A DNA stretch of 64,000 nt, from assembly GCA_963713865.1 (NCBI GenBank), contig OY970208.1, positions 1,024,001-1,088,000 on the forward strand. The letters are read 5' to 3'. This DNA comes from an uncultured candidate division Zixibacteria bacterium. GTDB lineage: Bacteria > Zixibacteria > MSB-5A5 > RBG-16-43-9. The translations under genes were made by a program, and so were the position numbers. The notes under the pieces are model-generated. The model made no database searches and had not been told where the DNA came from. It saw only the letters and a list, made by a program, of their open reading frames with translations. Shown here piece after piece: positions 55,674 to 60,775 of this stretch (its first letter is position 1; the number at the start of each line of letters is the position of its first letter).

Positions 55674-57644
55674 CTACATCCTTTGTTTCTCAGGCTTGCC
55701 CAGCCGGGTAGAATTCCACAAAAGGAAAATGATAATGGCAAAACAGATCAGGGCTAACCAGGGTCCGAAACTACCGGAAAGGCTCACTGCTTCATGCGAT
55801 TCCCAAAAAGCAGCATAACTCGGTACAGAGGCAATAAGGAAAGCAATTAAAACCCCGACTAAAGCATCACCTGCTACCAGCCCTGAGCTGAACAGGATTC
55901 CGTTCCCTTCCCTTTCTTTATACTGATGTTCTTTGGACAATTTCTGCACTATAAGAGCGATTATCCCTCCAGCCATAATCGGGGTGGAAAGGTCCAAAGG
56001 CAGATACAAACCGATGGCAAAGGGCAAAGATGAAACCCCTAAAAGCTCAACTGTTAAAGCTATCATCGCTCCGGCAATTATATAGAGCCAGGGAATACCA
56101 CCGGTCATAACCCCCTGAACCACGGTTGCCATCACATTAGCCTGGGGGGCTAAAAGGGGTACAGGATGAGCATCGCTTTTGACAAATCCAAAAGCAGAAT
56201 TTAGAAGAAAAACTGTAAACCCCATAAAGATAGCCGGGAAAATCAATCCCACAAACTCCATCAACTGCTGGCTTTTCGGAGTTGAGCCCAGGAGATAGCC
56301 GGTTTTTAAATCCTGAGCGATATCCCCGGACATACATACTGCTATGCAAACCACCGTGCCTATAGTCATAACTGTGACCATCCCTTTAAAGCCGGACACT
56401 CCAAAAGCTAAAAGGACTAAACTGGTGACTAAAATTGTAGCTAAAGTCATTCCAGAGACCGGAGAAGATGAGCTCCCCACAATTCCCACAATTCGGGCTG
56501 CCACGGCTACAAAGAAGAAGCCAAAGATTACGATCAGTAATGTTCCCAAGAAATGAAGATTTGTTCCAGGGTAGACCCAGATCAACAAAGTAGCTAAAAG
56601 GGAACCAAATAAAACCACATACATCGGAAGGTCCTGGTCAGTTCTAAGCTTCTGAGGCTGTCCTGATTTCTTCTGAGTTATTTCTTTTACTCCTCCAGCA
56701 AAAGAGTGGACAATAGCAGGAATAGCTTTAGCTAAGCTGACAAAACCTCCTAATCCTACTGCTCCCACTCCTAAAAATTTTATGAAATTGTTTCTGATCT
56801 CCGAGGGGGTCATCTCTGAGATAAGCTTAGTTGCTGGTGGAACTAAATTTGGCATATATTGTCCCAAGTAAGCGATCAAAGGGGCTATACCCAAATAACC
56901 TAATACTGCACCTGCCAGCATAAGGGCGGAAGTTCGTGGACCTATGATATAACCCACTCCTAACAGGGCTGGGGTAGCGTCGATTCCTACATTAGCTCCC
57001 TTGAGGAAGGGAAGGTTATAATTGGGAGTCTCGGGCCAGAGCCTGATACCGCCCATTAAAGTCTTGTATAAAGCTGAAAATCCTATACCAAAAAATACAG
57101 TCTTAGCTTTACTTCCTCCTACATCCCCGGCTTTTAAAATCTCGGCGCAGGCGGTCCCTTCAGGGAATCTCAATCTTCCATGTTCTCTAACAATCAGATA
57201 CCTTCTTAAAGGGATCATAAACAAAATCCCTAAGGTACCCCCCAGGATGGACAAAAAGATTATATCTAAATTTGAAATAGGATGAGAGAAACCAGAAAGG
57301 GTCTCATTCCAGATGAAAAAAGCCGGGATGGTGAAGATAATTCCTGCAGCTAAGGATTCACCAGAAGAGCCTATGGTTTGAACGATATTATTCTCCAAAA
57401 CCGTTCCCGTTTTGAAAATCCCTCTTAAAACTGCCATAGAGATTACTGCCGCAGGGATAGAGGCAGAAACAGTCATACCCACTTTTAAACCTAAGTAAGC
57501 GTTAGCTACTCCAAAGACAACGGCGATGATGGCACCCAGGATAATCGCCCTCAGGGTAAGCTCCGGTATCTTTTCATGAGCTTTTATATACGGCTCAAAC
57601 TGGTTTTGGTTCGGTTCAACCTTTTTTGGTTCAGGACTTCTCAT
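55674..57644 (-). CDS. OPT-family oligopeptide transporter
   Basis: ELTLRA..YLGLKVG, ENNIVQT, FPEGTACA, QDLKTG, APQA; many TM helices. Confidence 0.92.
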   Translation of the reverse strand: MRSPEPKKVEPNQNQFEPYIKAHEKIPELTLRAIILGAIIAVVFGVANAYLGLKVGMTVSASIPAAVISMAVLRGIFKTGTVLENNIVQTIGSSGESLAAGIIFTIPAFFIWNETLSGFSHPISNLDIIFLSILGGTLGILFMIPLRRYLIVREHGRLRFPEGTACAEILKAGDVGGSKAKTVFFGIGFSALYKTLMGGIRLWPETPNYNLPFLKGANVGIDATPALLGVGYIIGPRTSALMLAGAVLGYLGIAPLIAYLGQYMPNLVPPATKLISEMTPSEIRNNFIKFLGVGAVGLGGFVSLAKAIPAIVHSFAGGVKEITQKKSGQPQKLRTDQDLPMYVVLFGSLLATLLIWVYPGTNLHFLGTLLIVIFGFFFVAVAARIVGIVGSSSSPVSGMTLATILVTSLVLLAFGVSGFKGMVTVMTIGTVVCIAVCMSGDIAQDLKTGYLLGSTPKSQQLMEFVGLIFPAIFMGFTVFLLNSAFGFVKSDAHPVPLLAPQANVMATVVQGVMTGGIPWLYIIAGAMIALTVELLGVSSLPFAIGLYLPLDLSTPIMAGGIIALIVQKLSKEHQYKEREGNGILFSSGLVAGDALVGVLIAFLIASVPSYAAFWESHEAVSLSGSFGPWLALICFAIIIFLLWNSTRLGKPEKQRM

Positions 57645-57835
57645 ATTCCTCCTCTTAGCTTAAAATTTGAAAGATCAGTTTTCAATAATTACCCAAAGCT
57701 AATATTATGAAAGCTCTGAGTCAAGTTTTTTCAGTTTGGAGGGATTCAAAATTTTAAACCCCTACAAATTGTTTTCTTGTTGGCGACCCTGAAAGGGTCA
57801 CACTTGTATATTGAATATTATGTTTATATTTTACA

Positions 57836-58016
57836 GGTGAATAAGGGATATACCCTTCACCCAATGGTGGAAGGGAACCTTGCCGACAGATCGTGTCGCA
57901 CTTGGGCTAAAAGCTCGTTCGTAGCTTGGTCGTCGGCAAGGTCCCTTGTGCCTCTGCAAGCTCGAACAGTCGAATGGTTAAAAAGACCGCATAGCAAGTA
58001 TGGGCTACCAGAGGCA
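57836..58016 (+). ncRNA. IS110 bridge RNA (5' stem-loop, target-binding loop, donor-binding loop)
   Basis: Three stems (57836-57861; 57873-57945; 57949-58016). Internal-loop guides TGTCGCACT, TCGTAG, ACAGTCG and CAAG match this element's own target and donor. Confidence 0.85.
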
Positions 58017-58049
58017 AGTTAATTAAATTATACTAAAGGAGGAGTAGTT

Positions 58050-58976
58050 ATGCAACAGATAGTTTGCGGGATTGACGTTAGTTCAGAGGAGCTTGAAGCT
58101 TGCATTCTTTTGGCAGATGATACTGCTAATCCACACCGCCGGACCTTCAGCAACACCAGGAAAGGTATTAAGAAGTTCATATCTTGGTTAAGGGGTAACA
58201 AAGTAGAGTTGGTAGTTATGGAGGCATCAGGAGGGTATGAGCGGGTTTGTAGGAGGATGTTAAGAGAGTTAGGGATTCAGGCTCATGTAGTTAATCCTGC
58301 ACGGGTAAGGCATTTTGCCAGGGGGATAGGAAAACTGGCGAAGACGGACAAGATTGATGCCCGGGTTATAGCCAGATTTGGACAGGTGGTGAAGTTAGAG
58401 GAGTTAGGGGAGATAAGTGAGATGGAGTTGGAGATTCAGGAGCTTATCAAAAGGCGGCAGGAGTTGCAGGAAATGGTAGTGGCAGAGAAAAACAGGCTTC
58501 GTATAGCAGAGAGGGAAAAGGCAAAAAGCCTTAAAAGGATAATCAAGGTATTGGAGAAGGAGCTTGAGCTGATGGATGAGAGGATAAAGGAATTAGCTCA
58601 AAAAGATGATCAGATTATGCGGAAGGTTGGATTTTTAAGAAGGGAAAAAGGGATGGGATTTATCACCGCTATAAGTTTACTTTCTTGTTTACCTGAGTTG
58701 GGGAGAGTAGATAGGAAAAAGATATCTGCGTTGGCGGGGGTGTCACCTTTCAACCGAGAGAGTGGCAAGTGGAAAGGTAAAAGCTTCATAAGTGGAGGAC
58801 GTGGACTCATAAGAAAGATCCTGTATATGCCTGTCTTGGTAGCAATAAGATTTAACCAGAAGCTAAAAGAGTTTTATCAGAGGTTATTAGCTTCAGGAAA
58901 GGCAAAAAAAGTAGCCGTGGTTGCGGTGATGCGCAAATTACTAATTATCTGTAATGCCATTTTAAAAAATGCTTGA
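58050..58976 (+). CDS. IS110-family DEDD recombinase/transposase
   Basis: GIDVS, MEASG, KTDKID (DEDD RuvC-like domain); RESGKW catalytic-Ser motif; SD AAGGAGGAG. Confidence 0.95.
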   Translation: MQQIVCGIDVSSEELEACILLADDTANPHRRTFSNTRKGIKKFISWLRGNKVELVVMEASGGYERVCRRMLRELGIQAHVVNPARVRHFARGIGKLAKTDKIDARVIARFGQVVKLEELGEISEMELEIQELIKRRQELQEMVVAEKNRLRIAEREKAKSLKRIIKVLEKELELMDERIKELAQKDDQIMRKVGFLRREKGMGFITAISLLSCLPELGRVDRKKISALAGVSPFNRESGKWKGKSFISGGRGLIRKILYMPVLVAIRFNQKLKEFYQRLLASGKAKKVAVVAVMRKLLIICNAILKNA

Positions 58977-59086
58977 TTTTCAAGACAGTCGCTACGATGT
59001 TCAGGTACATTTAAAAAACTTTCTCCTTGCTTTCTCTTCTGAAAAACTTAAATTCTTTAAAGGACGTTCATCCAAGGAGATGTTTT

Positions 59087-60775
59087 ATGACCCATAAAGG
59101 TTACAGGTTTTTTTGCGGTTCGGTCTTAATCTTTTTTCTTTTTACAGCCTTTACTTTCGCTCAAGAGAGGAAAAGCAGTAAAAGTTTTAACGATTATCTT
59201 GCTTTTAGCCATTTCGTAAATGGAACCTTATATGAGCTTTCCGGGGACTTAAATTCAGCCGTTCAGGAATATAAAAATGCCCTGAATTATTCACCTGAGT
59301 CCTACACCCTGAAATTTTCCCTGGCTCAGGATTATTTCAAGTTAGGAGATATTGAGAATGCTTTAAAAGAGGTGGAAAAGATAGAGCCTAAAACGGGTGA
59401 AGCCTGGGCTTTTATGGGAGATTGTTACCGTAATCTGAATAAAAAAGATAAAACCATCGAGTCTTACAAAAGGGCAGTTCAGACTGATTCTAATCTTATA
59501 GCACCTTACTGGTATCTTGCCCAGGACTGGCAACAAGCAGGAAAAATTGATTCAGCCATCTATGCCTGGAGAAAAATAGCTTCAGACTCTCCGTTTAGTA
59601 AATCGATCTATTTGAATTTAGGATTTCTTTTAGAAACGCAAGGCAGGTTGGATGAAGCACTGCAGGAGTATAAAAGAGCTTCAAATGTGGATCCCTACGA
59701 CAAAAAAGCCCTTTTGTCCATAGGGGGAGTGTATGAAGCGCAAAAGGATTTCACTCAGGCAATAAGAGTATATCAGGAAGCCTTAGCCCAGGATACAACC
59801 GATATACTCGTTCGCACCAAACTGGTTCAGCTTTATTTTAACTCCGGAGACAGGGAAAAAGCTTTAGATGAAGGAATTAAACTATATGAACTTCGTCCAC
59901 AGGATAAGAATGTCAAAAGGTTATTAGGAGGAATCTATCTTTCCCTGCAAAAATACCCTCAGGCAGAGACTCTTTTCTCTGAATATATTAAAGCTGATTC
60001 AACTGACCCTGGCGGTTATCTTTTTTTAGGCAGAACTTTCTTAGAAGAAAAAAAATATCCACAGGCTAAAACTATGTTCCAGAGAACTATCGCCCTGAAC
60101 GATTCATTGTCCGGAAACGGATCCGTAGGACAGGAAGCCTGGGTAAATTTAGGAATAACTTACTTAGAGGAAGATAGCCTTTTAAAGGCAAAAGAAACAT
60201 TTTCACAGGCACTTCCTAAAGTTGAGAGGAAAGACGAAATTTATTATTTTTTGGGTCTGGTTTATTCCAGACTGAAGGAATTTCCTCAAGCGATAGAATT
60301 TTTACTGAAGGCTGATTCTCTCAATCCGGAGAACACTCAGGTCCTTTTCCTTTTGGGCTCAGCTTATGAACAGAGTAAAAACTTTGAGCTATCGGTCTCT
60401 ACTTTTGAAAAGGTTTTATCAAAGGACCCGGAAAATGATGAAGCTTTGAACTACTTAGGTTATATGTTAACAGATAAAGGGGTAAGGTTAGATGAAGCTT
60501 TAAAAATGATTGAAAAAGCTTTGGAGAAAAAGCCGGACAATGGTGCCTATTTAGATAGTTACGGCTGGATTTTGTTCAGACTGGGAAAAGTAAATGAAGC
60601 TGAAATCCAGATAAGGAAAGCATTAAAGACCCAGTTTAAAGATGCAGTGCTCTATGAACATTTAGGTGATATCTTAGATGCCTCAGGTAGAAAAGAAGAA
60701 GCAAGGCAACAGTGGGAAAAAGCTTTGGAGCTTAACCCTGAGAACGAAAAGATTAAAGCGAAATTGGGGAAATAA
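59087..60775 (+). CDS. Secreted tetratricopeptide-repeat protein
   Basis: Signal peptide from MTHKG (SD AAGGAG); many TPRs; ALNYLGY..YLDSYGW..EHLGD C-terminus. Confidence 0.88.
   Translation: MTHKGYRFFCGSVLIFFLFTAFTFAQERKSSKSFNDYLAFSHFVNGTLYELSGDLNSAVQEYKNALNYSPESYTLKFSLAQDYFKLGDIENALKEVEKIEPKTGEAWAFMGDCYRNLNKKDKTIESYKRAVQTDSNLIAPYWYLAQDWQQAGKIDSAIYAWRKIASDSPFSKSIYLNLGFLLETQGRLDEALQEYKRASNVDPYDKKALLSIGGVYEAQKDFTQAIRVYQEALAQDTTDILVRTKLVQLYFNSGDREKALDEGIKLYELRPQDKNVKRLLGGIYLSLQKYPQAETLFSEYIKADSTDPGGYLFLGRTFLEEKKYPQAKTMFQRTIALNDSLSGNGSVGQEAWVNLGITYLEEDSLLKAKETFSQALPKVERKDEIYYFLGLVYSRLKEFPQAIEFLLKADSLNPENTQVLFLLGSAYEQSKNFELSVSTFEKVLSKDPENDEALNYLGYMLTDKGVRLDEALKMIEKALEKKPDNGAYLDSYGWILFRLGKVNEAEIQIRKALKTQFKDAVLYEHLGDILDASGRKEEARQQWEKALELNPENEKIKAKLGK

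Follow-up and report, generated by a model that had tools for sequence, protein, structure and literature searches.

An IS621-like insertion sequence in a Zixibacteria genome, with predicted RNA guides matching its hairpin-repeat target and its own ends

Introduction

The described system closest to the locus presented here is IS621 of Escherichia coli, an insertion sequence of the IS110 group whose recombinase works together with a bridge RNA. We analyzed a stretch of 64,000 nucleotides, further called the window (contig OY970208.1 of assembly GCA_963713865.1, positions 1,024,001 to 1,088,000 of the forward strand), which comes from an uncultured bacterium of candidate division Zixibacteria. 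We report an IS621-like element found in this window, together with its predicted bridge RNA, its repeat target and its further copies in the host genome. All positions are those of the window unless a genome coordinate is given.

Bridge RNAs were predicted for 85.7% of IS110-group elements (PMC11208160). The RNA loop of IS621 encodes ATCGGGCCTAC, and its common natural site is ATCAGGCCTAC (PMC11208160). The left donor guide of IS621 pairs over 8 nt, and its right donor guide is discontiguous, A157-U158 being separated from C162-G165 by a G-T pair and two flipped bases (PMC11208158). A literature search pairing Zixibacteria with IS110 found no paper.

Results

The element and its recombinase

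An IS110-family element spans positions 57803-58993, with a mobile unit of 1189 bp, and it is very probably a complete, IS621-type insertion sequence of the IS110 group. The left junction reads GGTCACA (57796-57802), CT (57803-57804) and TGTAT (57805-57809), while the right junction reads ACAGTCG (58985-58991), CT (58992-58993) and ACGAT (58994-58998). The non-coding left end has 245 nt (57805-58049) and the right end has 15 nt before the core (58977-58991). The initial annotation, made from the sequence alone, had proposed an IS621-like bridge recombinase at 57782-58998. This identification was borne out by the protein domains, the catalytic residues, a predicted RNA with two loops, the complementarity of the guides, the CT core and an empty site that bears no scar. 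Every guide and junction string that had been listed was found in its place. The proposed span had to be trimmed: the element lies within it, but the span also takes in 21 nt of the target hairpin on the left and 5 nt of the right target, which do not belong to the mobile unit.

The recombinase matched PF01548 over residues 6-151 (E = 7.9e-27) and PF02371, the C-terminal Tnp domain, over residues 196-277 (E = 8.6e-15). Compared with all solved structures, it matched only IS621 (8wt6, E = 1.5e-36) and ISCro4 (9t56, E = 1.4e-34), in both cases over nearly its whole length. The identity with IS621 was approximately 32%, counted as identical positions in the structure-search alignment. Residues D9, E58, D100, D103 and S238 align with D11, E60, D102, D105 and S241, which form the active site of IS621 (PMC11208158). 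The closest protein relatives were 66-76% identical, and these were not recovered in the metagenome scan.

A predicted bridge RNA in the left end

The left end folded better than its shuffled versions (z = -5.97, 0 of 200 as good), and the fold consisted of two long stem-loops, both of which contain a large internal loop. The initial annotation had placed the guides in internal loops of two such stems, and this agrees both with the fold and with a covariance-model alignment, in which the four guide strings fall in unpaired loop columns. The left end is thus predicted to encode an RNA of approximately 140-180 nt with two internal loops.

To compare this structure between elements, we fetched 80 loci with relatives of 35-46% protein identity from species-representative genomes; among them were records of Rhizobium, Hoeflea, Anaerolineaceae, Pirellula and others. 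Fourteen loci were dropped, as they had less than 283 nt upstream or, in the case of L057, nothing left-end-like upstream. The left ends of the 66 relatives that were kept align with the left end in the window. RNAalifold, run on 44 sequences (one per distinct guide set and the window), predicted 17 pairs, and compensatory changes were present in 16 of these. A hand-written structure of 23 pairs was 86.8% paired in 43 relatives alone, compared with 71.0% in shuffles (0 of 500 reached the observed value). When the partners in this structure were slid along, at most 52% were paired, and double changes were present in 21 of the 23 pairs among the 43 relatives. A covariance model built from the left ends of the 43 relatives, with the window excluded, matched positions 57873-58013 at 60.8 bits (E = 1.7e-13); the match covered 140 of 140 positions and contained no non-standard pair. 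When the whole genome was searched with this model, the only matches were the three copies of the element described below.

In one metagenome variant (run X2, with a loose end after 57974) the left donor guide was the same, the upper stem of the donor loop was CGATC...GATCG and not GGTT...GACC, and CATTGCAAG stood in place of CATAGCAAG. These changes look compensatory and suggest a sister lineage.

The guides and their matches

We read the loops as for IS621, where the left half with the core is given in sense on the 5' side, and the complement of the core with the right half is found on the 3' side (PMC11208160). The target loop spells GTCGCACT followed by ACGA and, read in this way, specifies (T)GTCGCA-CT-ACGA. 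The left target guide matches the left target and core in the window at 7 of 9 positions, and one of the mismatches is a G opposite a bottom-strand T, as was pointed out in the initial annotation. The same guide matches the consensus of the repetitive extragenic palindrome (REP) family at 8 of 9 positions, so it fits the family consensus better than it fits the site in the window. The CAAG at 57995-57998, which had been given as a guide on its own, is the end of the right donor guide and lies within ATAGCAAG (57991-57998). The latter can read CTTGTAT with one base skipped.

When the mononucleotides of the left end were shuffled 200,000 times, not one shuffle contained the four guide strings in the observed order. 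As for single strings, 0.2% of the shuffles contained the target 8-mer, 6.1% contained the 6-mer and 1.2% contained the donor 7-mer. The 7/9 match in the window is weak when taken alone (by our estimate approximately 0.35 such matches are expected per left end). The guide match draws its strength not from this site alone, but from the repetition of the guide-encoded 12-mer across the genome: GTCGCACTACGA occurs 28 times, compared with 0.18 occurrences expected from base composition, and 68 sites in the genome differ from it by at most one mismatch.

Co-variation of loops and flanks in relatives

Co-variation was counted in 67 loci, namely the 66 relatives and the window. In the relatives the donor loop was nearly invariant (CGAACAGTYG ... 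CAAGGATGGG) and the target loop was variable, and the same is described for the relatives of IS621 (PMC11208160). The 7 nt aligned with ACAGTCG recurred exactly, at most 200 nt after the gene, in 55 of the 67 loci, and CT came next in 53 of these 55. We found the donor 7-mer variants ACAGTCG, ACAGTTG, ACGGATA, ACGGTTG, AGGGTTG, ACAATCG and ACAGCCG, each with its own right end. The right donor guide co-varied as well: ..CAAG was found with CTTG.. ends, ACTAG with CTAGT, and AGGAG with CTCCT.

The target guides followed the flanks in a similar manner. In 37 of 55 loci the right-target guide agreed with the core and flank of its own locus for 6 nt or more (in 23 of 33 if each guide set is represented by a single locus); guides of other sets did so in 77 of 2286 cross pairs. 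An exact stretch of at least 7 nt was shared by the left-target guide and the upstream flank of the same locus in 32 of 67 loci and in 215 of 2804 cross pairs, where the cross-pair values are inflated by related guide sets and the left boundaries of the relatives were defined via the guides.

In L023/L024, L012/L013 and L040/L043 different copies of a single element have CT, TT or GT as the core at their left junction. Since it varies among copies of the same element, the first core base at this junction is supplied by the target and need not be the same as that of the donor.

The target and the repeat family of the host

The target had been proposed to be a REP, and the host genome (G000, a single contig of 2.72 Mb) does contain a family of REP-like hairpins. 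The 3' arm of the hairpin beside the window copy overlaps the left target GGTCACA (57796-57802), and the GTCGCACTACGA sites lie at the 3' termini of hairpin repeats of several kinds. On the opposite strand the tail CTACGA reads TCGTAG, which contains GTAG, and a GTAG head is the defining feature of REPs. The cut between CT and AC inside the GTAG complement is common to IS621 and the element in the window.

All occupied sites that we saw carry the hairpin type GCGACCC-TGAAA-GGGTCGC, which is present at 12 of the 28 exact empty sites in the genome. At least 6 of the occupied sites are distinct (3 of 3 in the genome and 3 metagenome junctions). This excess hints at a structural preference, with few samples and with the independence of the sites and the background in other genomes being uncertain. 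A search for the reconstructed 14-mer in the window only was uninformative (3 matches at 3 mismatches, 2.3 expected).

At least three hairpin repeat types share the tail GTCGCACTACGAAA (for example at G000 positions 2555073, 2620288 and 2455786). There are also eight matches to PF01797, the Y1 transposase family, above the cut-off in the genome. These could be REP-associated tyrosine transposases (RAYTs) that spread the REP-like repeats, or IS200/IS605 transposases.

Copies, empty sites and mobility

The genome contains three copies of the element: the one in the window, L002 (G000:C1:196580-197791) and L003 (G000:C1:2436478-2437691). They are identical over 57801-58993 except for one A, at the position of 58814, which is missing in L002 and L003. 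Both these copies are frameshifted, and therefore the window copy is the only intact one. All three have a hairpin on the left: GCGACCC-TGAAA-GGGTCAC at the window copy, GCGACCC-TGAAA-GGGTCGC at L002 and, with a compensatory pair, GCGAACC-TGAAA-GGTTCGC at L003. On the right they are flanked by ACGAT, ACATT and ACGAG, respectively.

Metagenome contigs of three studies (X1, X2 and X4) join 57802 to 58992 and omit exactly 1189 nt, with a 2-nt ambiguity that equals CT. The uninterrupted site ...GGCGACCCTGAAAGGGTCACACT ACGATG... with the flanks of the window was also found in two same-genus genomes (loci L180 and L183). The target GGTCACA-CT-ACGAT, which had been reconstructed in the initial annotation, is thus present uninterrupted in the two same-genus genomes as well as in metagenome contigs. 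The element was inserted precisely between CT and ACGA, so that each junction has a single CT. Since the empty sites in the metagenome contigs and in L180 and L183 keep the hairpin, the latter is the target and not a part of the element. Since they carry the reconstructed target, the A at 57800 was part of the native site and did not arise by mutation afterwards.

Further metagenome contigs carry the element elsewhere. One has a 3' half that is 99% identical, with the junction of ACAGTCGCT and ACGAAACC. Contigs of X1 and X7 contain the element with three further left flanks; their likeness to the window starts at 57782-57785, which is the start of the hairpin, and stops on the right side at 58996-59003. 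None of the element-bearing metagenome contigs examined shows the deletion at 58814. The identity of the copies but for one base, together with the metagenome contigs with other flanks, points to recent mobility. We regard the element as genuine and probably active. The flank of L096, compared with the genomic empty sites, gave repeat matches only and no orthologous locus.

The frameshift common to L002 and L003 has two possible origins: either a defective copy was moved in trans, or a change that had arisen a single time was copied. In related genomes, contigs L177, L181 and L182 (G001), L176 (G008) and L178 (G060) start with the right end of a related element, TTGATTTTCAAGACAGTCGCT, which is followed by ACAT, ACTA, ACAA or ACCC. 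As these contigs begin with TTGATTTTCAAGACAGTCGCT, related copies break those assemblies and occupy other right targets.

Predicted junction promoter and proposed mechanism

We joined the ends of the element in a script and obtained TTGATT (58973-58978), a spacer of 17 nt and TATATT (57807-57812), with a promoter score of 9/12. In the integrated left end no promoter site reaching 9/12 was found. In three other genomes, related elements have kept TTGATT and its spacing in their right ends. The predicted promoter fits the junction promoter described for IS110 elements (PMC11208160).

By homology to IS621, the element would be excised as a circle, and its joined ends would assemble a promoter, with the -35 hexamer from the right end and the -10 hexamer from the left end, from which the bridge RNA would be transcribed. 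The recombinase would then bind this RNA, which would base-pair with both strands of the target and of the donor, and S238 together with the DEDD site would exchange the strands at the CT core. L002 and L003 would depend on the recombinase of the window copy in trans.

A relic of a second element

A left-end fragment of a related element, 77% identical to the left end in the window, is located at G000:C1:596639-596730 (L004:1501-1600). It consists of a left junction, in which ...GGCGGGATGCCCCT is followed by TGTATATT, and approximately 100 nt of left end, in which the 5' hairpin and the first part of the target loop are preserved. The position of the target guide reads TTTGCCCCT, with a 7-nt match to the left flank of the relic, GATGCCCCT. 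The CT of the guide is exactly where likeness to the window ends, and directly after it comes ACAAT, which resembles the REP tail variant CTACAA. There is no recombinase gene after the relic and the covariance model does not match it.

The DNA that encodes the guide copies the left half of the target and the core, and hence it could serve as a pseudo-site. A deletion joining this mimic of left target and core to the right junction would give exactly the structure of the relic. We suggest tentatively, and with more doubt than confidence, that the relic is such a deletion, made by the recombinase, and so reflects a route of self-truncation; the suggestion rests on a single case and is offered as a lead. 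The proposed deletion recalls the 'half-match' recombination reported for IS621 (10.64898/2026.08.31.748434). If the suggestion is true, elements with bridge RNAs would have a built-in route of self-truncation.

Table 1. Positions of the element, its predicted RNA and its target in the window.
Feature	Start	End	Strand	Remarks
Left target half: REP-like hairpin, arm GCGACCC (57783-57789), loop TGAAA, arm GGGTCAC (57795-57801)	57783	57802	+	Outside the mobile element
Core dinucleotide CT, left copy	57803	57804	+	CT at both junctions; 2-nt ambiguity in the empty-site joint
Right donor TGTAT (57805-57809), first bases of the element, with -10-like hexamer TATATT (57807-57812)	57805	57812	+	Copies identical onward; junction promoter scan
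5' hairpin region of the predicted RNA, two alternative foldings	57837	57875	+	Minimum free energy fold pairs 57853-57861 with 57866-57875; other pairing 57837-57862 by eye
Predicted target-binding stem-loop with internal loop	57879	57940	+	Fold, RNAalifold, pairing test, covariance model
Left target guide TGTCGCACT, sense of left target and core	57894	57902	+	8/9 to REP consensus, 7/9 to the site in the window
Right target guide TCGTAG, reverse complement of CT and ACGA	57919	57924	+	T57918 would also read the consensus A that comes next
Predicted donor-binding stem-loop with internal loop	57950	58016	+	Fold, RNAalifold, pairing test, covariance model
Left donor guide ACAGTCG	57966	57972	+	7/7 to left donor at 58985-58991; next base is A, not core C
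Right donor guide AT-a-G-CAAG	57991	57998	+	Would read CTTGTAT (core and right donor) discontiguously; co-varies in relatives
Recombinase gene, 308 aa, AGGAGG ahead	58050	58976	+	Open reading frame, domain and structure matches
-35-like hexamer TTGATT in the right end	58973	58978	+	17 nt from TATATT once the ends are joined
Left donor ACAGTCG with core CT, last bases of the element	58985	58993	+	Copy alignment; metagenome empty-site contigs
Right target ACGAT, flank outside the element	58994	58998	+	Copy flanks; empty sites

Discussion

Several observations weigh against the reading of the locus as an active element guided by a bridge RNA. The score of the predicted junction promoter was only 9/12. 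The first base of the left target guide (T) is mismatched with the G present in every observed target, the left donor guide pairs over 7 nt without the core C, which most relatives have in this place, and ACAT, the right target of L002, fits the guide at 2 of 4 non-core positions. A scan of positions 57600-59200 with Rfam 15 gave only chance-level matches, none better than E of approximately 1, where the presence of a bridge-RNA family in Rfam 15 is itself uncertain. The missing A common to L002 and L003 splits their gene at approximately codon 255. Among the sequencing runs listed as containing the element, none was an RNA run. Finally, the circle junction of joined ends was absent from the metagenome contigs examined, which cannot show rare forms.

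These points can be set beside other explanations of the same data. The structure of the left end might be a mere leader that serves translation or stability of the recombinase mRNA, with the protein reading the REP hairpin and the guide matches arising as by-products. In favor of such a leader, the occupied sites are all of one hairpin type (3 of 3 in the genome and 3 in metagenomes), compared with 12 of the 28 exact empty sites, and a target stem-loop is reported to be an extra determinant for ISPpu10 (10.64898/2026.03.19.712850). However, across the relatives the loops change along with the flanks while the stems persist. The loops are the least conserved part of a conserved RNA, and a reader consisting of protein only would not need loops that track the flanks. 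We therefore regard a mere leader as very unlikely, and it is more likely that the hairpin is an added gate than a replacement for the guides. The hairpin at 57783-57801 adjoins all three copies, and for this reason it might also be taken for a subterminal repeat forming the true left terminus of the element, and not for the target. Yet it differs between copies that are otherwise identical, and it occurs many times without the element. We give this possibility next to no weight. A hairpin belonging to the element was rejected, as it stays behind in the empty sites of the metagenome contigs and of the same-genus genomes.

The element might also have died recently in this strain and be a fossil that no longer moves and whose gene is intact by chance. 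The frameshift present in two of the three copies would agree with this, and so would the lack of a joined-end circle in the metagenome contigs examined. On the other hand, the window copy is of full length with all catalytic residues, the copies are identical but for one base, the locus is empty in two same-genus genomes, and the form without the frameshift is present at other sites in metagenome contigs. A dead element is in our opinion unlikely, and we keep to the reading of a bridge-RNA element that is probably active.

The kind of system presented here is already known from IS621 of E. coli. The element in the window is a further and particularly clean natural example of it, well supported and not surprising. 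It provides a compact (308 aa), apparently intact bridge recombinase from a host lineage distant from the enterobacteria, in which systems of this kind were elucidated. The locus is also a fully readable natural record: besides the guide and the consensus target, it offers the actual target, in which a G-T mismatch is tolerated, the site in both its empty and its filled state, and the sister copies. Complete natural sets of this kind are useful for working out the rules of mismatch tolerance and for asking whether the hairpin adjacent to the target is a second gate. The initial annotation had named the recombinase a candidate tool for genome editing. From what its sequence offers, such a use is possible but not special, because the element is one among thousands and there is no sign that it would outperform those already tested. 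ISCro4 and IS622, close relatives of IS621 from enterobacteria, are bridge recombinases used in human cells. ISCro4 belongs to the same family as our recombinase, with a full-length match (E = 1.4e-34).

The relatives of 46% protein identity or less share with the element in the window the architecture of the RNA, the near-invariant donor loop, the CT core and the arrangement of the ends; this applies to the 66 relatives that were aligned. Compared with them, the predicted RNA in the window has an extra outer stem (57950-57956 with 58010-58016), and AA, not CC, follows its left donor guide. Among the described elements with structured targets, ISPpu10 of Pseudomonas putida is an IS110 element with a GC-rich stem-loop just 5' of the paired target bases (10.64898/2026.03.19.712850). 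In the window a 7-bp hairpin provides the left target with its 3' arm, and a role of the hairpin is here only hinted at by the counts of sites.

The likeness to IS621 is extensive. Both elements have a two-domain recombinase with aligned DEDD and serine residues, and in both the left end is long and has, in the window by prediction, a 5' hairpin and two stem-loops that contain internal loops. They also have in common a 9-nt left target guide that includes the core, a split right donor guide, a CT core, a junction promoter, which is predicted in our case, and REP targets. The targets of both end with CTAC(G), that of IS621 being ATCAGGCCTAC (PMC11208160), and in both the natural site has an A where the guide has a G. 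The differences concern the size of the protein (308 aa compared with 326 aa, at approximately 32% identity), the REP family, the host, the extra outer stem of the predicted RNA, the first base of the left target guide, which mismatches all targets seen, the right target guide (6-7 nt compared with 4 nt) and the left donor guide, which pairs over 7 nt in the window and over 8 nt in IS621.

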